From Escherichia coli (GTDB lineage Bacteria > Pseudomonadota > Gammaproteobacteria > Enterobacterales > Enterobacteriaceae), in NCBI RefSeq assembly GCF_003790525.1, contig NZ_CP033635.1: DNA of 64,000 bases; one strand, written 5' to 3'. The position numbers and the translations under genes are program-made. How positions within the stretch are numbered: the first letter of the stretch is position 1; the number at the start of each line of letters is the position of its first letter. The notes below the pieces were generated by a model. It was not told the DNA's origin and searched no databases. It saw only the letters and a program-made list of their open reading frames with translations. Positions 3,863 through 30,362 of this stretch are shown here, piece by piece.

Positions 3863-5194
3863 TTATGAACGGCCTTTTGCCAGATATTGCTCCATCTCTT
3901 CTTCCGGCACCATTCCACCTCCCGTCGCCCACACCAGATGAGTGGCATTATGCAGTTGTTCTGCGCTGAAACCGTGCATCTGTTGGTAACTTACTGATGC
4001 GCACACGCGCTGAGGCCCAGCCATACCCGCCAGTGCCGAAGGTTCAAGACGAATACCTTCTTCCTGCGCCAGCCAGCCAAGCATGTCATACATGGTTTGA
4101 TCGCTAAGGGTATAGAAGCCATCCAGCAGACGCTCCATCGCCCGCCCGACAAAGCCTGATGCGCGACCAACTGCAAGGCCATCCGCTGCGGTAAGGTTGT
4201 CGATACCAATATCCTGAACAGAAATCTGATCGTGTAATCCTGTATGGACGCCTAACAACATACAAGGGGAGTGCGTTGGTTCGGCAAAAAAGCAGTGAAC
4301 ATGATCGCCAAACGCCAGTTTAAGTCCGAATGCGACGCCACCAGGACCACCACCAACACCACACGGCAGATAGACAAACAGAGGGTTATCAGCATCGACG
4401 ATACGACCTTGCTGGGCAAATTGCGCTTTAAGACGCTGGCCAGCGACGGAATACCCAAGGAACAACGTGCGGGAATTCTCGTCATCAATAAAGAAACAGT
4501 TCGGGTCAGACTGCGCTGCTTTACGTCCTTCCTCGACAGCAACACCATAATCTTGCTCATATTCCACGACTGTAACGCCATGGCTGCGCAGTTTCGCTTT
4601 TTTCCACGTCCGGGCATCAGCAGACATATGCACTGTCACCTTAAAGCCAATGCGGGCGCTCATTATGCCGATTGATAACCCCAGATTTCCGGTTGAGCCC
4701 ACAGCAATGCTGTATTGACTAAAGAACTGTTTAAACTCCGGGGAAAGCAGTTTGCTGTAGTCATCTTCAAGCGTCAGCAACCCCGCTTCCAGAGCCAGTT
4801 TTTCTGCATGTGCCAGGACTTCATAAATCCCGCCGCGTGCTTTTATGGAGCCGGAAATGGGCAAATGGCTATCTTTTTTCAGTAGCAGTTGCCCGCTGAT
4901 CGGTTGTTGATATTCCTTTTCCAGCCGTTTTTGCATAGCCGGAATGGCAACCAGTTCTGATTCAATAATCCCCCCAGTAGCAGCAGTTTCAGGAAATGCT
5001 TTTGCCAGATAGGGTGCAAAACGGGATAAGCGCGCATGGGCGTCCTGAACATCCTGTTCGGTCAGGCCAACATAAGGTAAACCTTCAGCCAATGAGGTCG
5101 TGCCAGGATTAAACCAGGTGGTTTCTTGAAGAGCAACCAGATCCTCTACCAACGGATACTGGGCGATGAGCGAATTCATTTTAGCGTTTTCCAT
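3863..5194 (-). CDS. dsdA: D-serine dehydratase (PLP-dependent)
   Basis: 443-aa [34 protein letters not shown]..., PLP lysine motif region SGSIKARGG. Confidence 0.95.
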
Positions 5195-19947: not shown

Positions 19948-19966
19948 TGGTGTCCCTGCAGAAATC
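19948..19966. repeat. Degenerate copy of argW 3' end (putative distal att of the satellite)
   Basis: TGGTGTCCCTGCAGAAATC versus the argW 3' end TGGTGTCCCCTGCAGGAATC at 32636-32655 (17 of 20); about 12.7 kb from the tRNA. Confidence 0.5.
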
Positions 19967-20183
19967 ATCTTAATTATTATTATGTTGATTTATATGTAGT
20001 TTATTTTTGATTTTTTGTTTTTGTACCCGTTTTGTGCCCGTTTTATTCGATTCCCAATTTAAACTTCGATTCTAGAAAGGTGAGTAGGGGAGGTTATCAT
20101 TTCATGTATCATTATTGTAGACACAGAATAATTACTCGCCTATCCTCACTGTAGACACACAATAGATACAGGAGTTAACCCAC

Positions 20184-20432
20184 ATGCGCACACAGGTTGT
20201 ATTGCAAAAATGGGGTAATAGCATTGCCCTTCGACTAACGGGAAACCTTAAAACCGTTCCGGGGTTTTCAGTGGGTGATATCGTCAACGTTGAAATTAGT
20301 GAAAAGGGGCTTTTTGTAGAAAAGCCTGCACGCCGTCGCCTGAGTGAAGCCGAATTACTCGCCGGGATAACGCCAGTTACAGCGCACGCGGACGAAATTG
20401 CCACCCCATTCAATGAGGAGGTTGATTACTGA
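20184..20432 (+). CDS. MazE/PemI-family antitoxin (AbrB/SpoVT fold)
   Basis: 82-aa ORF MRTQVVLQKWGNSIALRL...; stop overlaps the toxin start. Confidence 0.75.
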   Translation: MRTQVVLQKWGNSIALRLTGNLKTVPGFSVGDIVNVEISEKGLFVEKPARRRLSEAELLAGITPVTAHADEIATPFNEEVDY

Positions 20433-20776
20433 TGTTTGTACCTAAGCGTGGTGATATTTGCTGGCTGGATTTTGAGCCGCAGAAAGGAAAAGAGAGCGGA
20501 AAGTATCGCCCGGCACTCATACTATCCCATGAGCAATATAACCGACTCACCGGGCTTGTCATATGCTGCCCCATAAGTACGAGCATACGAAATGCTCCCA
20601 CAGAAGTTCCGGTAACAAATCTGGACGCCCCCAGCGTGGTAGCAACCACACTCATTCAAACCCTTGACTGGCGTCAGCGGAAAGCGCGCTTAATCACAGA
20701 GGCAGAAGATGGGGTATTTAATGATGTGCTTGAAAGAGTCATTACCCTGATTGGTGGAGAGCATCTGCTTAAGTAA
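20432..20776 (+). CDS. MazF/PemK-family toxin (endoribonuclease)
   Basis: 114-aa ORF MFVPKRGDICWLDFEPQKGKESGKYRPALILS..., PemK/MazF-like N-terminus; coupled to the upstream antitoxin. Confidence 0.75.
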   Translation: MFVPKRGDICWLDFEPQKGKESGKYRPALILSHEQYNRLTGLVICCPISTSIRNAPTEVPVTNLDAPSVVATTLIQTLDWRQRKARLITEAEDGVFNDVLERVITLIGGEHLLK

Positions 20777-20819: not shown

Positions 20820-22091
20820 CTATTCTTTCCAGTCAATCCCATCCAGTAAGCACCCTGCCTCATATTGCCCAACAACCCAGTCAAGATTGCAGGACTCATA
20901 GAAAGCGAGGCGATTATACTGTGGCTCGTTTTTTACCAGACCACGAACGGAGCCGCGTTGCCAGTACAGGCACAGATTGGCAAGAGGTGTGATCAGCACA
21001 GCATTGTCCGGGAAAAATGGAACGGTCACAGCCGGAAGATTCCCCAGCACGGGCTTTTTAATGATTTCCTCGTTAAGCAAAATTTCCTGATTCATCTGCG
21101 ATGGATCAAGACGGTTTATCAAAGGCCATTGTTTACGGACCAGAGTATTGTGACTGCATACGGCCACAATGCCTTCCTGCCACTGTTCATCAATCATGGA
21201 TTGCCAGGCATCCAGAACAAGTGCATCTATTGTATGGTGTGTACCGCGTGTATTGCTTGTCGGCGATGAAACAGAAAGACCGCTGATAACCCTTCCCGCT
21301 GCTTCGTTTCGAAACTTCTGCAACCATCCGACGCCGCAATCGTCACGGCCCGGATATGTTTCAGGATCAGATTGATCGGCATAGTGTGTGCCGTTAAAAC
21401 CAATCTGAATTAAATCCAGCCATTTCCGGCGTTCAAAAGCGGCACGGGCGCTTCCTTCAAGACCATTTGCGGACGCGTGAGCATCGACATTGTCGTAGCT
21501 CAACGCAAAATCAAAATTAACCTGCTCGCAGCGGTAGCCTCTTGAAACCAGTGAATGCGCCTGTAGTGGCGAACGGCGCTCGTGAGGTGGCGATGTACGT
21601 GCCAACGGCCGGGAAGCGTCTACCAGCACAACCTGACCTGATATATCCGTAACAGGCACGGGGGTTATTTCAGCAAGGAAATTTGCCTGCCATCCACTGG
21701 CAAGCGTTGCACTCTGGCGGGGAACGGGTTCAACTTCTGACGAATAGCGCGCAGTATCACCGGAAAAGTGCAAATCCTTCGGATGCTTTCCGGTTATCGA
21801 CTCGATAGCGCAATTGAAAACCATCTGAGACTGTTGATTTCGTTGTGATACAACATAATCAGCAGTGCAATTATAACACTCAATGCCGTCGTTATTACCC
21901 CCACCGCTTGCAGTATGCAGGGTGTGAAGCTCAAGCTCACGCTCCAGTTTTTGATATTCATTGTCCAGCGCGCGACGCGTCTCATCGCTTATGCTTGCTG
22001 TGTTTGCTTTCAGGCGATTCCGGGACATTAACTCCCTGAGTCGGCTCACTATATCAGCGCCGTGCAAATGTGAAATATTCAGACCGCCCAT
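20820..22091 (-). CDS. Hypothetical protein B of a two-gene cargo operon (about 423 aa), no recognisable family
   Basis: Start taken at the internal ATG (MGGLNISHLHG...) that overlaps the upstream gene stop as TAATG; the longer 470-aa ORF is read as an artefactual extension. Confidence 0.6.
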   Translation of the reverse strand: MGGLNISHLHGADIVSRLRELMSRNRLKANTASISDETRRALDNEYQKLERELELHTLHTASGGGNNDGIECYNCTADYVVSQRNQQSQMVFNCAIESITGKHPKDLHFSGDTARYSSEVEPVPRQSATLASGWQANFLAEITPVPVTDISGQVVLVDASRPLARTSPPHERRSPLQAHSLVSRGYRCEQVNFDFALSYDNVDAHASANGLEGSARAAFERRKWLDLIQIGFNGTHYADQSDPETYPGRDDCGVGWLQKFRNEAAGRVISGLSVSSPTSNTRGTHHTIDALVLDAWQSMIDEQWQEGIVAVCSHNTLVRKQWPLINRLDPSQMNQEILLNEEIIKKPVLGNLPAVTVPFFPDNAVLITPLANLCLYWQRGSVRGLVKNEPQYNRLAFYESCNLDWVVGQYEAGCLLDGIDWKE

Positions 22092-22801
22092 TACTGCCAC
22101 CCCCGGCAGAGTTCTCTGCCCTCCGCAAGGTCGCGCATTTTTTCTGGATTCTGTCGCGCCGCGCTCCATTGTACAGGTGAAGGGGCGTTCCTGATTGCGT
22201 GGCTTACCGAATCCGGCAGTTTCTCCGGGCAATAACGAAGCGGATTGGAGGCATCGCTCTCAATATCGTTAATCCGGCCGCGAATCAGCCCGACACTTTC
22301 AACAATATCTGCCATTTTCAGTGTTTCACATATTTTCTTTTCTGCGTTATACAGCGGCTGGCCAAGCAGCTCACATAAACCACGAATCAATAGCAGAGCA
22401 GGGGTCAGCTCGTTAATCAGTCCGGGAAGTGCTTTTGCAAATATCTCTGCCCGCAACTTATTATCAATGCTTTGGTAAGCACAGCCAGCCTCTGCCGCGT
22501 TATAACGACACTCCAGTAACCTGATGCGCGCCTCATCATGCAATACCCGCAGACGCTCAAGATTTTCTCGCGCCACACCCGCCTGAATGCATAATTTTGC
22601 GGAGGCTTCCGTTTTTGCGCCCAGCGCAGACAGGATTGAGTTCTGCCAGTCACGTTCGAGAGACTCCAGCTCCCCTTTCGTCTGTTCGATAGTCGCTTCC
22701 AGATTGGTGATTAATGATTCCTGTTCGCTGAGTTTTGCCATGGCCGTATCAAACTGTGCTTTACATGCCTGATGCCTGGCGCTTGCCTGAGTTATATCCA
22801 T
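22091..22801 (-). CDS. Hypothetical protein A of the two-gene cargo operon (236 aa), predicted coiled-coil N-terminal half
   Basis: Heptad-like, charge-rich N-terminus (KLSEQESLITNLEATIEQTKGELESLERD); no known motif recognised; first gene of the operon. Confidence 0.6.
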   Translation of the reverse strand: MDITQASARHQACKAQFDTAMAKLSEQESLITNLEATIEQTKGELESLERDWQNSILSALGAKTEASAKLCIQAGVARENLERLRVLHDEARIRLLECRYNAAEAGCAYQSIDNKLRAEIFAKALPGLINELTPALLLIRGLCELLGQPLYNAEKKICETLKMADIVESVGLIRGRINDIESDASNPLRYCPEKLPDSVSHAIRNAPSPVQWSAARQNPEKMRDLAEGRELCRGWQ

Positions 22802-22965
22802 TGTTTGCTCCTGTAATACATTTTTTACTTACGCCCATTTTTTCCATATTGCGTAATACATTCCAGCCGATTTTGTTCTCGTAATACGCTCACAATACTG
22901 TTGTATTACGCTTTCTTATATCGCGGGTGTTAAATCCCGGTATAAGCAATCAGGGAGGCAACACG

Positions 22966-23199
22966 ATGAAAAAACAAAAGAAAATGCGATACGTATTACG
23001 CTGTATTCGTATCCCGCACGAAATCGACCATAAAATAAATCAGATATGTAAGGACAGAGAGATGAACTACTCCCAGTGCGTCAGAATGTTTATCTGTCAG
23101 GGAATTAAGGCCGGGGAAACGCAGGAAGAAGACCGCAACGGGCGCAATGTAGCGGGAGATGTGTGGGCCTGGGCAAATGACCAGAACTACACGACGTAA
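22966..23199 (+). CDS. Small hypothetical protein, possibly a ribbon-helix-helix regulator
   Basis: Start taken at MKKQKKMRYVL...; divergent from the cargo operon; beta-strand then two helices by eye. Confidence 0.35.
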   Translation: MKKQKKMRYVLRCIRIPHEIDHKINQICKDREMNYSQCVRMFICQGIKAGETQEEDRNGRNVAGDVWAWANDQNYTT

Positions 23200-23249
23200 T
23201 ACAGAAATAACGTAGCCGGTTACACTCGCTGGCTGCGTTATACAAATCA

Positions 23250-23432
23250 CTATGAAGTTTTCAACTTCCTGCGCTTAGTGATGCGTACAAACGACTCAAG
23301 CGTACAAAAACAAGCCCCACACTCAATATTACTGCACTGGTAATACGTTTTGTAGATGTTTTGTTCGTGCTCTTCCAACGAACGACTACGGGTTCGGGCT
23401 GAAGCGCCACAGGCCGGGCAAGGGAAAGACAT
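23250..23432 (-). CDS. Ogr/Delta-family zinc-finger late-gene activator
   Basis: 60-aa ORF MSFPCPACGASARTRSRSL...YYQCSNIECGACFCTLESFVRIT aligns with P2 Ogr (MFHCPLCQHAAHARTSRYI...YHQCQNVNCSATFITYESVQRYIV). Confidence 0.8.
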   Translation of the reverse strand: MSFPCPACGASARTRSRSLEEHEQNIYKTYYQCSNIECGACFCTLESFVRITKRRKLKTS

Positions 23433-23793
23433 ATCACGCTCCTCTTACTGGTGTGAAATTTGACCTATTATATCTCCTGCCGCCCCCTCTGGCTGTATCA
23501 AATAAACCCGCAGCAGTCGCCGCGTATTACGGACGGACGCACCGTTCCCATGCTCACTCGTCACATTCCCCGTATCAGTTCTCTCTTACCGTAAGAACGG
23601 CTCTGGCTGGCGATAAAACTAACCCGGTCGGGCATTCCCGCAGTCTTTAGAGAAAATGTAATTTACCCCCTGAAACGTGGGCTGTTCCCCCGTCACCTGC
23701 GCGCGAAAAACTCACCGTTTTTTGTGCACGCACGAAATCGCCCTCCGGGTGCGCCAGTACTGGGCCGGATGGGCAAAAAGTTACTCTAAAAAA

Positions 23794-23820
23794 TTGTGCA
23801 AATTTGTGCACTTTTGTGCA
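23794..23820. promoter_or_regulatory. Three direct TTGTGCA repeats at 10-bp spacing (operator-like)
   Basis: TTGTGCA at 23794, 23804 and 23814, with a fourth copy at 23722; helical phasing suggests a DNA-binding protein array. Confidence 0.35.
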
Positions 23821-24042
23821 GATGAACAATAGCGTGAAAAAGAGTGCTTTTGAGAGATTTTTTATGGCAACTGCGCCGCGTGTATTACGTTTTTTACCAT
23901 CCCCGCCGCGCATGTACATACTTCATTTTTCTGCCAGACAACAGGGCAACTCCCCGTGACTGACAGCCCCAAAAAATCAATGATTGATGTTGCATTTTTG
24001 TTAAAGGTTAGACCAGTTGTTTTAGGGCTCTGCCTCATAATC

Positions 24043-24366
24043 CGGTGGGGGGTGCGCAAAGCGGTTACAACGGTTACAACACTCAAAAACACCACTTAAC
24101 AGCATGATTTTAATGGATATTGTTTGTAACCGCTTTGCGGTTACACTGCGGTTACAACGGTTACAGGTTTCAAAAAGCACTTTATTATCAATCAATTAAA
24201 AACTTAACCTGTAACCGCCTGTAACCTAACAAAACGGTTACATGTAACCGCGTTGTAACCGCTTTTATAACTCATCGGACCAGTTATAATATATTGATAT
24301 ATAATACAAAAATAAGTAATTTTAAATTTGTAACCGTTGTAACCGCTTTGCGCACCCCCCCCCAAA
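24043..24366. repeat. Iteron cluster flanked by a ~30-bp inverted repeat (candidate satellite origin)
   Basis: GGGGGGTGCGCAAAGCGGTTACAACGGTTAC (24045-24076) and its reverse complement (24330-24363); at least 8 GGTTACA/TGTAACC copies in both orientations in between. Confidence 0.7.
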
Positions 24367-24611: not shown

Positions 24612-25616
24612 TTACTCTGCTGGCTCTTTTTCTTCGGTGATCACTATGTTGGCTACCGGGTTAAATCTCATGGCATCTGCCAGATAATCCGGTGCAAAAT
24701 GTGCGTATGCCATAGTCTGCTGAATTGTCGCATGCCCAAGGATTTTTTGTAGCGCAAGAATGTTGCCACCGTTCATCACAAAGTGACTGGCGAATGTATG
24801 CCGCAATACATGCGCAGCCTGCCCCCTCGGTAAATCGGGTTTTATTTTTTTTAATGCCCGGCAAAACTCTCTGTACTTCACATCAAACAGTCGCCCGGTT
24901 TCTTTTGTTTTTACGGCATCGCATATTTCCTGCGACACAGGCACCGTTCTTTTTCTACCGTTTTTGGTTTCCAGAAACGTTATTCTGTTATGAACTATTT
25001 GCTCTCCATGCAATCTGCTGGCCTCACTCCAGCGGGCTCCGGTACAAAGACACAAGAGCGCAACCCTTCGTTGATCTCCATTCAGCCCGTCAAGCAACAA
25101 TGTGACCTCGTTTTTTGATAAAAAGGCCATTTCCCGCTGCTTTACATAAAGAACAGGAATACCACGAACCGGATGCTCTGCATCCCACAAACCGATCTTT
25201 TTCAGGGCTGTAAACATCCCCGATAATCTGTTCATGTATCTGTTTGCTGAGGACGGCTTTAATCCTTCCGCAATTTTCTGCGATCGCCATGCAATGATTT
25301 TTAATTTGTTGAGTTCTGCCGCAAACATGTCAGCTCCAAGCTCATTAATAATTTTGCCAAGTTGCTGTTTATCCGTGTTTGCCTTTCGCCTGTGCTGACC
25401 GTGATAGACCCACCACAATTCCAGTAAATCGCTAAGCGTTCTCCGGTCGCGATAGCCCTGTATAAACTCGCGCTTTTCGGCGTTCGCTATGATGTACCGT
25501 TCAGTTGCTGTAGCTATCGATTTTTTGTCAAATATTCTTCTGATGCGCTTCCCTTTACGTCCGCATGGCCTGATATCGAGCAGCCACCGCCCATCATGCA
25601 TCTTTCTGATCGGCAT
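24612..25616 (-). CDS. Tyrosine recombinase (phage integrase family, XerC/D-like)
   Basis: Catalytic region ARWSEASRL ... HVLRHTFASHFVMNGGNILALQKILGHATIQQTMAYAHF; ATG at 25616 with GGAGG upstream, directly after the primase stop. Confidence 0.7.
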   Translation of the reverse strand: MPIRKMHDGRWLLDIRPCGRKGKRIRRIFDKKSIATATERYIIANAEKREFIQGYRDRRTLSDLLELWWVYHGQHRRKANTDKQQLGKIINELGADMFAAELNKLKIIAWRSQKIAEGLKPSSANRYMNRLSGMFTALKKIGLWDAEHPVRGIPVLYVKQREMAFLSKNEVTLLLDGLNGDQRRVALLCLCTGARWSEASRLHGEQIVHNRITFLETKNGRKRTVPVSQEICDAVKTKETGRLFDVKYREFCRALKKIKPDLPRGQAAHVLRHTFASHFVMNGGNILALQKILGHATIQQTMAYAHFAPDYLADAMRFNPVANIVITEEKEPAE

Positions 25617-25618
25617 GT

Positions 25619-28288
25619 TTAACTCCCCTCCTTGTAACTGAATATCCGGCATTTCAGTACTTCCGGCTCTCTGGCCTCGGCGACCCCTCTTCCGGCGTTT
25701 GCCTGTCTGGAGACCTCACTACGAATGGTTTTGCGGCCTGTCAAAGGTCGGGAACGTCCGGCTGCGAGCAACTCAATCATTTCGCGGTCAGTTCGGATCT
25801 CCACGCGGTGAATAGCGGCAGCCTGTGCCAGTTGCGGAATACTGATAGCAATCCCCTCGCGGCATCCCTTGCCGTAGTGGTTTACACCGTATTTTGTTAT
25901 GCCGTCCAGATAGTCGAACGCCTCCCAGAACGCTATTACTTCCGGCAAGTCATCCGTTACCGCTTTAACTTGTTCCGCTGCCATTCGTTCCAGTTCCTGG
26001 CATGTGGCATTAAGCCATTCATCCGGGATATCAATAACGCATTTCAGCGCCCTGACCAGCGCAATAAGTTGCGCGTGATTTTTGGCAATACGGGGATGGA
26101 GAATATTTTCGCAACCGCAAAGGCGGGTCGTTTCAGGCTCTGAGAGCGCCAGAAACATTTCCATAATTGCCCGTTCACGGCTGACTGCCCGATGAATAAA
26201 CCCTGACACCTTCTCAACGGGGTAGAGTTCCAGTCGTCTCGCCGCCAGCCGGGTATCAGACGAGTGGCGCTTTTTATCGGTATATATGCGAATCAGTCGC
26301 TCAATAATTGCAAGTGAGGCGTTTACCCTGGCATTCTGTGCAATCACGATAGCGCCCTTAAAATCCGGGTCATAGGTGTTGTTATTGTTGGTCTTAACGC
26401 CACGAACGCCGATACCGCCGCCGTTATAGAGGCTTTTCAGGTTATCGAAGTCAAACGCACCTCTTTTTTGCGCATTGCCTCCCCTGTCTGCTTCAATCAG
26501 AACAACAGGTAATCCGGCGACCTGTCCAAAGGTGCGCTTCCAGCCCGCCTCTGATCCTTTGGTTGGATCAACGCCTTCATAGTTGTCACGACCGCACAAC
26601 CGCCAGCAAAAATCAATCAATGTTGATTTACCCGTTCCGGGCTCCCCGGTGACTTCAAGGAAGGGGAAGGATTCTTCTTTATCCCGGATTTGTTCGCTGA
26701 ACAGGGAGCCCAACCAGAAAGCCAGGGTAATAATTCCTTTTTCACCAAAAGCCAGCCAGAGATCTTCCACCCAGGACTCTGTAAACTCATCCGGTTTTTT
26801 GTAGTTAATCTGTAATGTGGGTTTTTCGCTTAATGGTTTTGCGTTTATGCCATCAATTTCAAAATAATCTTCGTCATTGATTTCATAAGTTTTTCCCTTG
26901 TAAACAGCAATATCATTAAACAGCCATGCCCCAATCGCCTTGTTGTATCCGATAAAATCCTGACCAATAACCTCTTTTATTGCGGGAAGGTCATTTTTTA
27001 TTAATGCGTCAAGGTGCGCAGTTGTTCCGGTATAAATGCCGCCTTTTGCCACATGCAACAGGCGTTTTTTAAATTCAGATGCGGATGTCAATTGTCCTGA
27101 TGTAAAGGTGTTTTTCACCGTAGCACCATCCGGGAACGTAACACGGAAGTAATACCATGCTTCATCCGTGTCATTATTTCTAATGTAATAAAGCGGCGCT
27201 GGGTTACAGTTTGCGATTTCTTTTACTGCGCCAGATTCCTTAAGTGCAATTTTGCGCGCTTCATCCTCATCAACACTTCTCTCATTCTTGGCACGCTCTA
27301 CAGCTTTCATATAGCGCTCAATGTCCAGTTTGAACCAGAAAACACGGTTATCAAAAGTAAAATGAAATTCCTTCCGCTCACGAAAGGAAAATATTATTAG
27401 CGCCTTATCTCTCGGAGATTTCGCCAGCAATAAATCACCGTAATGACGGTATCTTTTCACATCATGGCCACGCAGCTTTCCGGCGATGTGTAAATCATTC
27501 CAGTCGCGTTTATTGTTGTTTTTACCTGGCAACGCCGCTGCCGTTCTCCAGCCGTCTTCGGCGCTGCGTTCTGCATGTTTTTTCGCGTAACGCTCACCCG
27601 CACGCCCGTTATCCAGCGCCCACACAATAACCGGACGGGGATTATCCCCGCACAGCTTCGCCAGCTCTTCCAGCGCCTTATCAGGGTAGTTCACGGCAGA
27701 CATGACAGAAACGGCCGCAATGCCATTCTGGTTAAGGCTGATGGCATCAAAGATGCCCTCACAAATCCAGATTTCTTTGGCCTTGCTTAAATCTGCTCCC
27801 GGATAAGCCCACCACAACCCCTTGTAGCTGCCGGAAAAATTCGCCTTGCGCGCGAAGCGTCCCGGTCGGTCTATGATGCGCTCCCACCACACGCCGTCAG
27901 CCAGCGTAAAACGCACAGTAGCGGCCTGTTCGCCGTTTTCCTTGTCCTGGTATCGCTCCTGAGTAAATGCGCCCTTCAGTGGCCCCACAGCAATATTGCG
28001 CGCCTCCTGAAGATAAGCTGCCACCGCTGCATATGGCTCGTCTTTCGTGCTGATATAACGATCTGACCATGATGAAAACACATCCGGGTAAAGTTCTTTG
28101 GTCAGCAGGTCTGTACCGCATTTATTTTCGCGCCCACAGTGTACGATGTACGGCCTTTCAAGGCTGGTAAACAACTCTTTCTTTCCACATTGCGGACAAA
28201 CACCATACCGGAGGTAGTTATTTTCTTCTTTGAAGTTGTAATCACGGATAAGACGGTTAATAATCTCTTTTCTGATGTCAGATTTCAT
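25619..28288 (-). CDS. Primase-helicase (P4 alpha / PICI Pri-Rep-like)
   Basis: N-terminal zinc finger CPQCGKKEL...HCGRENKCG, TOPRIM-like region, Walker A GEPGTGKST; start at the ATG with GGTGGAG SD rather than the upstream GTG. Confidence 0.85.
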   Translation of the reverse strand: MKSDIRKEIINRLIRDYNFKEENNYLRYGVCPQCGKKELFTSLERPYIVHCGRENKCGTDLLTKELYPDVFSSWSDRYISTKDEPYAAVAAYLQEARNIAVGPLKGAFTQERYQDKENGEQAATVRFTLADGVWWERIIDRPGRFARKANFSGSYKGLWWAYPGADLSKAKEIWICEGIFDAISLNQNGIAAVSVMSAVNYPDKALEELAKLCGDNPRPVIVWALDNGRAGERYAKKHAERSAEDGWRTAAALPGKNNNKRDWNDLHIAGKLRGHDVKRYRHYGDLLLAKSPRDKALIIFSFRERKEFHFTFDNRVFWFKLDIERYMKAVERAKNERSVDEDEARKIALKESGAVKEIANCNPAPLYYIRNNDTDEAWYYFRVTFPDGATVKNTFTSGQLTSASEFKKRLLHVAKGGIYTGTTAHLDALIKNDLPAIKEVIGQDFIGYNKAIGAWLFNDIAVYKGKTYEINDEDYFEIDGINAKPLSEKPTLQINYKKPDEFTESWVEDLWLAFGEKGIITLAFWLGSLFSEQIRDKEESFPFLEVTGEPGTGKSTLIDFCWRLCGRDNYEGVDPTKGSEAGWKRTFGQVAGLPVVLIEADRGGNAQKRGAFDFDNLKSLYNGGGIGVRGVKTNNNNTYDPDFKGAIVIAQNARVNASLAIIERLIRIYTDKKRHSSDTRLAARRLELYPVEKVSGFIHRAVSRERAIMEMFLALSEPETTRLCGCENILHPRIAKNHAQLIALVRALKCVIDIPDEWLNATCQELERMAAEQVKAVTDDLPEVIAFWEAFDYLDGITKYGVNHYGKGCREGIAISIPQLAQAAAIHRVEIRTDREMIELLAAGRSRPLTGRKTIRSEVSRQANAGRGVAEAREPEVLKCRIFSYKEGS

Positions 28289-29134: not shown

Positions 29135-29289
29135 TTGTGGGTTAATCGCCCCTGTTTGTCATTGCGGGAATATGCCATACGACAGGTATCACGCCATGCA
29201 TCGTCATAAGTCGGATATTCCCGGGAATGAATCATCTGGCGAACGTCGCCGTTCTGGTAGTTAATCAGGGTGATAAGGAGCTTAAACAT
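29107..29289 (-). CDS. Hypothetical small protein (about 60 aa)
   Basis: ATG at 29289 (MFKLLITLINYQNG...) preceded by GGAGG; the longer 145-aa ORF is read as an extension. Confidence 0.35.
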   Translation of the reverse strand: MFKLLITLINYQNGDVRQMIHSREYPTYDDAWRDTCRMAYSRNDKQGRLTHKCAVKIMEG

Positions 29290-29719
29290 GGCACGCCTCC
29301 CGGACACGGATACGGGCAACAAAGACCAGACGGGATGCCGGAAGCAGGGCGCGCGCTTCGCGCTCACTGGCAGCGGTAACGGTATGAAGGCGGATATTTT
29401 TACCGTGGCACTGCATAAAGCGCCAGATAAAATCAGGGCGTGTTGATATAGCCATTTTGGCGGCTCCTTGATTAAGTTTACGGAGTCTCGCCAGCACGCT
29501 GTCAAACATGGTGGCGGGACGTAACAGGGTTGACAGACTGGCAATCAAGGAACCAGCGAGCGCAAAGGCTCCCCCATTACGCCCCGCCATAATACGGGGT
29601 AGGGTGGAATTACGGGCACAAAAAAACCGCATTACGGAAATATAGCGGCTACCCGCTTGATTGTTCAGGCTGTCAAACCCGGCACCCGCTTTATGAGGTG
29701 CGGGCAAACGATACGCCAT
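29282..29719 (-). CDS. Hypothetical satellite protein (about 145 aa)
   Basis: Start taken at MAYRLPAPHKAGAGFDSL...; same-strand array between AlpA and the primase. Confidence 0.4.
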   Translation of the reverse strand: MAYRLPAPHKAGAGFDSLNNQAGSRYISVMRFFCARNSTLPRIMAGRNGGAFALAGSLIASLSTLLRPATMFDSVLARLRKLNQGAAKMAISTRPDFIWRFMQCHGKNIRLHTVTAASEREARALLPASRLVFVARIRVREACHV

Positions 29720-30362
29720 GACAAAAAAGCGAGTCAAGCAATATTGCAAATTATTTTTGCGCAATTGCGCTGAGTGATTGATTTTTAAGAGTAAAAAAGT
29801 CATAATCATTTCTGCCTATTGTTTCTTATTGTTGATTTCAGGTGCACTAAATGCACATCCTTGACTGGTTGGCTCGCTGGCTTTAGCGAGCTTCTTTTTT
29901 GCTCTGCTGCCAATACCCGGCCTCCTTCCCTCACATGTAGTCATGTGCTCATTCCAGTCAGGTGGATAATGCTGTATTACCGGACATCCGGTTATGATGT
30001 TTAAAGCGTTTGTTTGTTTATGCCACGTGGAGAATATACCCCCACCGCCATTACTTGTATTTATCATAACAGTTCACCCAATTCGGTTAATGTAACCGGA
30101 ATAACTCAATTTCATACACTGTAAATAAATGCTGATTTTAAACTTAGCTCCTTGGAATATATTTCTTACGTGTGACGCACAGGTGAAAATATCCCTCTGA
30201 TAGTCCATTTTCTTTTATTTTGTCACATCTGTTTACTCCGGTTCCCTTAACAAGGGTAGAGCATCTTTTAAACCATGAATGCATCTTCGGTTAAGTGATG
30301 TTTCTTATTGTATGAAATATTTAGGCGCATATCGCGCCATGCTGACTATAAAATGAAAATAA

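Follow-up and report, generated by a model that had tools for sequence, protein, structure and literature searches.

The segment at positions 24044–24363 of a 64,000-nucleotide stretch of Escherichia coli DNA (contig NZ_CP033635.1 of assembly GCF_003790525.1; the whole stretch is hereafter the window) is probably the vegetative replication origin of a P4-style satellite of about 12.7 kb, bound by the satellite's own primase-helicase. A satellite origin bound by the adjacent primase had been suggested in an earlier sequence-only reading of the stretch, and our comparisons favour it. In particular, the segment is a conserved module found together with one primase family, in satellites as well as in complete phages; within each element its repeats change as a set, and the module co-varies with the primase gene and not with the gene that lies between the two. 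The origin assignment also draws on the anatomy, which is typical of an iteron origin, namely 13 iterons, AT-rich tracts, two sites matching the consensus of integration host factor (IHF) and no DnaA box. The parts of the segment are as follows, direct copies of the iteron reading GGTTACA on the plus strand and inverted copies on the minus strand.

24044–24079: distal terminal arm (primase-distal), with a G-run, GCGCAAAGC (the CGGAAA box of the family) and two direct GGTTACA copies 9 bp apart (24063, 24072); aligned with 14 other elements.
24125–24165: internal iteron group 1, an inverted copy at 24125 and direct copies at 24139, 24150 and 24159, spaced 11 and 9 bp; positions conserved in the alignment.
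24186–24198, plus strand: central IHF-consensus site TATCAATCAATTA, inside a tract of 85% AT; aligns with the second annotated IHF site in the R3 repeat region of phage phiCTX.
24210–24260: internal iteron group 2, four inverted copies (24210, 24220, 24243, 24254) plus one direct copy (24236), which gives rise to the palindrome GGTTACATGTAACC.
24262–24328: primase-proximal AT-rich tract, a candidate unwinding region, holding the second IHF-consensus site (24287–24299, minus strand).
24328–24363: proximal terminal arm (primase-proximal), with two inverted iterons (24329, 24338), GCTTTGCGC and a C-run.

The architecture that the sequence-only reading had described was confirmed. The inverted repeat bracketing the cluster is real and measures 36 nt per arm, with 35 of 36 positions complementary (97%) and 248 nt between the arms in a repeat search; only the coordinates first given for it were 1–3 nt off, as the 31-nt string GGGGGGTGCGCAAAGCGGTTACAACGGTTAC on which they were based lies at 24047–24077 and its reverse complement at 24331–24361. 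The many GGTTACA/TGTAACC copies in both orientations were likewise confirmed, six on the plus strand and seven on the minus strand, with adjacent copies spaced 9–11 bp. The heptamer occurs 18 times in the window against 6.9 ± 2.6 times in shuffled sequence (none of 100 shuffles reaches 18), and 13 of the 18 copies fall within 282 bp (24063–24344), where about 0.03 would be expected by chance. Elsewhere in the 64 kb, no 350-bp interval holds more than five copies of any 7-mer. The AT-rich stretch is borne out by a GC fraction of 0.28 at 24250–24349, with AT reaching 80–90% at 24280–24319. The IHF consensus WATCAANNNNTTR is matched seven times in the whole window, two of them being the sites listed above; no DnaA box was found in the cluster, and a promoter scan gave no result above chance. 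The segment thus combines a repeat cluster above chance, an AT-rich tract, a co-inherited initiator gene and a repeat sequence specific to its element, attributes expected of an iteron origin.

Comparison of the cluster with other elements revealed a shared module. The primase family of the satellite is also that of phiCTX, Ralstonia phage RSY1 and Escherichia phage ESSI2_ev239, at 41–51% identity. ESSI2_ev239 carries a CGTCACA/CATCACA cluster bracketed by CATCGGAAAACCGTCACAAACATCACA and its complement (L002:538–830), and phiCTX carries a GGTAAT(T) cluster with the same inverted terminal pairs, in a region (NC_003278, 35100–35390) that its RefSeq record labels "containing R3 repeats" and furnishes with two "IHF binding site" features, without a function. 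A scan by primase alignment, with one genome per species, yielded 80 loci. We then defined a strict signature, consisting of a tandem 5-mer pair 8–12 bp apart, an inverted tandem pair 230–300 bp further on and at least eight core copies between them, and counted it in each element together with its ±10-kb flanks. The window and 17 primase-bearing loci (18 sources) each gave a single match to the signature, with no extra match in 1.8 Mb and none in shuffled sequence, and the span between the outer repeats was 251–282 bp in all of them. For GC-rich prophages exact 7-mer counting was uninformative, and the cluster of phiCTX-type prophages lies beyond attP, outside the 10-kb flanks.

Fifteen of the clusters could be aligned over their full length (~290–310 bp), with conserved iteron positions and orientations; they come from E. 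coli, Erwinia-like, Pectobacterium, Xenorhabdus, Providencia and Citrobacter sources, ESSI2_ev239, a Neisseriales metagenome-assembled genome, Alkalilimnicola and phiCTX. Common to them are a CGGAAA box (in the window the variant GCGCAAAG) and a G-run on the outer side of every terminal pair, an AT-rich block of ~55 bp with an ATTGAT core, in the same place beside the primase-proximal arm in all aligned elements, a central TAAC-N4-TTGAT site and an AAATCAT motif before the distal arm. The likeness to phiCTX extends along the full alignment: repeat number, position and orientation, the terminal pairs and the places of the IHF sites are the same, the outer repeats span 274 bp in phiCTX and 282 bp here, and the primases belong to the same family with 41% identity. 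The phage differs in its core, GGTAAT(T), and in the location of the region between attP and cosR, 4.4 kb from the primase gene. The R3-type module, as we define it here by alignment, has inverted terminal tandem pairs 250–282 bp apart, 10–15 core copies, a CGGAAA-like box with a G-run beyond each pair and IHF-like sites. The window cluster shows all of these features, and by the alignment it and the R3 repeat region of phiCTX are one and the same module.

In the reverse direction, a search with the terminal motif CGGAAANNGGTTACAANGGTTACA returned 18 viral contigs. Sixteen of these were informative, and in all 16 the cluster has a primase homologue (40–89% identity) next to it; the remaining two were cut by a contig end or only 1.9 kb long. 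Two plasmid-borne primase homologues that we examined, from Sphingomonas and Azospirillum, lie in phage-derived contexts and add no independent evidence. A Providencia rettgeri prophage (L020:5265–5290) has a solitary extra right-hand terminal arm, GTAACCATTGTAACCGTTTTCCG, about 120 bp before its complete cluster, which hints at rearrangement or duplication at the module ends.

The repeat core itself differs between these elements and is homogeneous within each of them. Seven cores were found, distributed as follows.

GTTACA: the window and most enterics.
GTCACA: E. coli STEC313, 12 copies and no GTTACA.
ATCACA / GTCACA: ESSI2_ev239 and Citrobacter.
CTTACA: Arsenophonus.
GTAACA: Neisseriales.
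GTGAGA: Alkalilimnicola.
GTAATT: phiCTX.

A close contrast is that between the window, with 13 GTTACA and no GTCACA, and STEC313, which has the same layout and a primase 91% identical. Since 12–14 sites remain identical to each other while the core that they share drifts, a single sequence-specific reader is indicated. Pairing between the arms does not suffice as an explanation, because direct copies without a partner in register change as well. This observation bears on the idea that the segment is a miniature inverted-repeat transposable element (MITE), a structured RNA or a single-stranded DNA hairpin with no connection to replication, which we regard as extremely unlikely. The terminal inverted repeats, the joint change of both arms between elements and a strong single-strand fold (−86 kcal/mol, z = −13.9) would suit such an object. 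The fold, however, arises from the repeats themselves, as does the weak interior palindrome symmetry (z about 2.4), whose source is the iterons, and pairing cannot account for 12–14 identical copies that include direct repeats. Nor does the segment behave as a mobile repeat: the flanks CTCATAATCC and AAACTTTAGC differ, so that there is no target-site duplication, and the segment occupies one fixed position per satellite, occurs in only 61–64 of 5426 E. coli genomes and only inside this satellite type. No Rfam family matches at the segment.

As to which protein reads the repeats, two neighbouring genes come into question. The cluster lies just downstream of the primase and recombinase genes, as had been described from the sequence, 3′ of both and beyond a terminator hairpin.

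25619–28288, minus strand: primase-helicase, 889 aa, with Zn-ribbon, toprim, P-loop NTPase and a small C-terminal alpha/beta domain; proposed initiator and iteron reader.
24612–25616, minus strand: rec2, the second tyrosine recombinase of the island, encoded between primase and cluster; related to P2-like phage integrases.
24553–24591: bidirectional terminator hairpin with T-runs on both sides, closing the primase-rec2 operon before the cluster.

Fifteen E. coli copies fall into three cluster types, with matching primase types, and carry three rec2 alleles (55–60% nucleotide identity; seen in the window, L004–L006, L096, L097 and L109–L116) that are freely reassorted among otherwise similar satellites, alleles A, B and C each being found with cluster types I and II. 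Across these copies, pairwise identity of the cluster correlates (Pearson) with that of the C-terminal part of the primase at 0.85 and of the rest of the primase at 0.80, and with that of rec2 at 0.16. A clear example is the comparison of the window with the satellite L005, in which rec2 is 96–100% identical and is flanked by a primase C-terminus of 70–85% and a cluster of 70–78% identity. Because the primase tracks the cluster while the intervening rec2 reassorts, the cluster is inherited with the primase gene. Judged by these patterns, rec2 is not the iteron reader and is a freely exchanged cassette, with possible roles at a second integration site, in multimer resolution or in action on the helper. 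Each allele resembles integrases of P2-like prophages (57–68% in amino acids). The homology is 66–68% to ESSI2 Int (Erwinia-type satellites), and for allele B 57% to the Int of Citrobacter/Cedecea prophages. A 19-nt direct repeat (17 of 19 identical, TCTGCC(TC/AG)ATAATCCGGTG) abuts the distal arm at 24029–24047; its other copy, at 24676–24694, falls within the 3′-terminal part of rec2, and L005 preserves the repeat less well.

The same data bear on the suggestion, made in the sequence-only reading, that the long terminal inverted repeat is a substrate of the recombinase, whether as an invertible segment, as an attP with heptamer arm sites or as a multimer-resolution site. In its favour, rec2 is the immediate upstream neighbour, part of the same operon, and the arms of the inverted repeat are long and almost perfectly matched; rec2 is also homologous to the integrases of P2-like phages, in which attP lies just 3′ of int. 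The arrangement also recalls the fimS switch of FimB/FimE, a segment of ~300 bp with bounding inverted repeats that adjoins a tyrosine recombinase gene. Unlike fimS, the segment shows no orientation polymorphism. Among 5426 complete E. coli genomes, megablast finds it in 61 and blastn in 64, always on the chromosome, and megablast gave no match in plasmid and phage collections. In every record a single stretch on one strand accounts for at least 80% of the query, where an inverted core could yield at most about 59%, and the three most divergent copies (L004, L005 and L006), read base by base, have the same polarity. With all records collinear on one strand at this coverage, there is no sign of inversion. 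Moreover, the identical architecture is kept in relatives that lack a neighbouring recombinase: the cluster directly follows the primase gene, with no recombinase between, in Pectobacterium satellites (L010, L014), in Providencia, Arsenophonus and Xenorhabdus prophages (L012, L019, L020, L024, L011), in the satellite L093 and in most viral contigs. Attachment sites, for their part, have other repeats. The attP of phiCTX stands beside int with its own GTTCCCA repeats, read directly, and that of ESSI2_ev239 would have GTCCACA repeats, to judge from a 7-mer cluster beside the integrase gene. Together with the free association of the three alleles with both main cluster types, these findings largely refute the suggestion, and a role as recombinase substrate is very unlikely.

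In the primase itself, a Toprim_2 domain was identified (E = 1.8e-12), a P-loop lies near residue 554, and the protein as a family member matches phrog_1139 (E = 2.4e-297). Its last ~130 residues are the most variable part among the E. coli copies; the last 91 are predicted to form a beta-alpha-alpha-beta-alpha-beta domain (predicted local distance difference test, 88.7), and the last 200 gave weak fold matches to the Rep helicases of Staphylococcus aureus pathogenicity islands (SaPI) and the Cch helicases of SCCmec. Sequence searches of the PDB with the primase and with a C-terminal profile returned nothing useful. In an alignment of 32 primases with a known repeat core, just one of ~890 columns separates T-core primases (V/I/Q, 26 sequences) from the others (T, six sequences including STEC313): residue 877 (about 25655–25657 in the window, minus strand), which precedes the invariant Cys of the last strand by three residues. 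At the other 31 columns that discriminate lineages, the STEC313 primase groups with its E. coli relatives.

The cluster has a further neighbour on its distal side, about 340 bp beyond the distal arm.

23680–23830, minus strand: P2/P4-type cos region, with TGCAC repeats at 23790–23830 and 23725–23735 and a cos-like site GGCTGTTCCCCCGTCACCTGCGCGC at 23680–23704; context, and not part of the origin.

This region aligns with the cos regions of phage phiCTX and of the Xenorhabdus, Pectobacterium and Alkalilimnicola elements L011, L014 and L033; on visual inspection it also looks like the right end of P4. It emerged only from aligning the sequence beyond the cluster with those cos regions: a search of the window for the P2/P4 cos 19-mer gave no match even with three mismatches allowed, and a short-word BLAST of the cos-proximal regions of ESSI2-like prophages against the island gave no match. 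The open reading frame (ORF) at 23647–23919 that RefSeq lists as a hypothetical protein overlaps the cos region and is unlikely to be a gene. About 900 bp of non-coding DNA hold the candidate origin, cos and the terminator.

Such proximity raises the possibility that the cluster is an accessory packaging site, to which the small terminase subunit of the helper and IHF would bind, positioning terminase at the nearby cos. The cosB site of lambda has IHF sites and repeats in both orientations, a description that the IHF sites and two-way repeats of the cluster match. A cos-type site with the motif GGCGNGGCGGGG lies 170–180 bp from the cluster in phiCTX, L025 and L033, and the distance is about 340 bp in the E. 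coli satellite. However, the two come apart in L011, L012, L014, L020 and L024, where the cos motif is 2.1–5.5 kb away while the cluster stays 0.1–1.1 kb from the primase gene. The TGCAY repeats next to cos, shared with P4, form a separate conserved block, and the P4 genome end that we inspected has this block without such an iteron cluster; conversely, no cohesive-end motif of the GGCGNGGCGGGG type is present within the cluster itself. In addition, near-identical E. coli satellites, which have no terminase, differ in their core (GTTACA versus GTCACA), as do their primases. A packaging function is thus quite unlikely.

The satellite phage P4, with its ori and crr, is one of the closest known systems. 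Both satellites have an integrase, AlpA, a C4/CI-type immunity RNA with Icd, an Ogr/Delta-like activator and cos. The primase and the P4 alpha protein have their domains in the same order; weak matches, collinear between the two, fall in the Zn-ribbon region, in toprim (E = 0.004) and at Walker A (E = 2e-4). P4 ori and crr likewise have short iterons that face both ways, some of them as tandem pairs with 9-bp spacing, with a similar core (GGTGAACA in P4, GGTTACA here), and crr (P4 positions 4291–4590) is, like the cluster, an iteron block of ~300 bp after the primase gene and a terminator. In contrast, the primase is distant from alpha (the best BLASTP segments have E = 2e-4 and 0.004) and belongs to phrog_1139, of the phiCTX type. 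The P4 type I octamer is TGTTCACC whereas the core here is GGTTACA; there is one cluster here instead of ori plus crr, inverted terminal pairs here instead of two 120-bp direct repeats, and the conserved CGGAAA boxes and G/C runs are additional. The satellite module is therefore not a member of the P4 ori/crr family in the strict sense, while it would work like an alpha/ori-crr system.

The comparison with crr also raises the alternative that the cluster is a control site only, serving handcuffing, incompatibility, partition or a crr-like enhancer function, bound by the primase or another protein of the element, with replication starting elsewhere. P4 requires crr, its second iteron block directly downstream of alpha, besides ori, and the cluster sits in a crr-like position; plasmid iterons, moreover, also act in copy control. 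Against this, the island has no second GGTTACA cluster, only singletons at 23218, 27202 and 30091, each element has a single signature match within ±10 kb, and the module possesses its own AT-rich tract and IHF sites. We consider a pure control site unlikely.

Several points weigh against a primase-bound origin and temper its assignment. The case is comparative, and binding and firing are what we infer throughout the family. In ESSI2_ev239 and phiCTX the cluster is 4–5 kb from the primase gene, and in four lineages it is 170–340 bp from cos. Correlation with the cluster is nearly as strong for the N-terminal part of the primase as for its C-terminal part, which speaks for linkage to the primase gene and not to a particular domain. 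Fold searches with the primase did not return the origin-binding domain of P4 alpha, and their winged-helix matches were of low significance. The association of residue 877 is statistically weak; because control swaps also gave separating columns (0–2 for most sequences, more for some), this residue is a lead and not a proof. In the library searched, no paper turned up in which the phiCTX R3 repeats are given a function or this primase family a defined origin, and the RSY1 paper terms the protein a DnaG-type primase only.

With these reservations, we propose the following mechanism for an origin bound by the primase. The satellite primase-helicase would recognise GGTTACA through its C-terminal domain, on a layout of 12–14 sites at 9–11-bp spacing in which two tandem pairs face each other ~265 bp apart and the inner groups run in both orientations. 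The iterons would nucleate primase oligomers, plausibly two hexameric helicase rings, and IHF would bend the DNA at two or three conserved sites, compacting the module of ~290 bp. Next, the AT-rich tract of ~65 bp that adjoins the primase-proximal arm would melt, the helicase would load and the toprim domain would prime, followed by theta-type, DnaA-independent replication as for P4. The primase C-terminus as reader, the stoichiometry, the part played by IHF, the melting site and the firing of the origin are the steps that we infer, in contrast to the anatomy, the conservation with the primase family, the concerted change of the iterons, their co-inheritance with the primase and their independence from rec2. 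A tentative and on balance doubtful extension is that the module is a self-contained, portable loading platform for two helicase hexamers, in which 12–14 sites would correspond to 2 × 6 C-terminal domains and the inverted terminal pairs would place the rings head to head on IHF-folded DNA, and whose specificity could be re-programmed by a few changes (e.g. 877 V to T together with iteron T to C).

Iteron arrays of this general design are known from other satellites. The origins of SaPI, of phage-inducible chromosomal islands (PICI) and of the Vibrio phage-inducible island-like elements (PLE) have iterons flanking an AT-rich region that are bound by the Rep helicase of the island or by RepA. 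They differ from the module here in their helicase family and show no sequence similarity to it; these layouts were compared by general background. The kind of system is already familiar. What is new is the family-wide definition of the module, the evidence for switchable specificity, the uncoupling from the integrase-like neighbour and the location of the satellite cos.

On its gene content, the host element is a satellite-type island. It extends for ~12.7 kb from the 3′ end of tRNA-Arg(CCT) (32636–32710) to a degenerate copy of that end at about 19948–19967, and no terminase, portal or tail gene was found among its genes. Besides the features already given, it contains the following.

31195–32499, minus strand: P4-type integrase.
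30363–30584, minus strand: AlpA.
29282–29809, minus strand: Icd-like ORF, with C4 antisense RNA and isrK (29507–29701).
Minus strand: small ORFs.
24044–24363: the iteron cluster.
23250–23432, minus strand: Ogr/Delta-like zinc finger.
22091–22801, minus strand: ORF of 236 aa.
20820–22091, minus strand: P2-family capsid homologue.
20184–20776, plus strand: MazEF.

The att repeats at 19948–19967 and 32634–32655 leave UpaE and a gene of the OmpH family beyond the satellite and put MazEF just within its far boundary. Satellites related to it are found elsewhere (hpt-gcd, near dsdC), and in each the main integrase is a different one. The homologue of the P2-family major capsid protein has an N-terminal extension of ~140 aa, and the adjacent 236-aa ORF has no family match; neither Sid nor Psu is recognisable in the satellite. 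In STEC313 (L004), the capsid module is at a different place in the island. The closest relative, E. coli GF60 (L001), is otherwise 99% identical and has IS21-family istA/istB (L001:12005–14312) between the Ogr-like gene and the cos region.

Rfam matches at 29507–29714, within or beside the Icd-like ORF, comprise the C4 antisense RNA (74.6 bits), isrK (50.6 bits) and a sub-threshold c4-a1b1 target match (30.8 bits against a gathering score of 46.7). A P4/P1-type RNA immunity system and a replication module unlike that of P4 thus coexist in one element. A second repeat, GTAATAC, is present in nine copies in both orientations within 1.1 kb (22813–23888), between the 236-aa ORF and the cluster, and its count in the whole window is 20 against 5.9 expected; it may be read by the Ogr/Delta-like protein or by a 90-aa ORF at 22927–23199.

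If the origin assignment is true, it would give a function to a repeat block of the phiCTX record that has stood unexplained in GenBank for decades, and a defined origin to the phiCTX-type primase group of P2-like phages and to a group of enterobacterial satellites. The module is small, at ~300 bp plus one gene, and exists with several natural specificities within one species. It could serve as a set of orthogonal replicons. Should the loading-platform idea also hold, phages and satellites in one cell would keep orthogonal replicons, and the family would constitute a natural set of compatible minimal origins.

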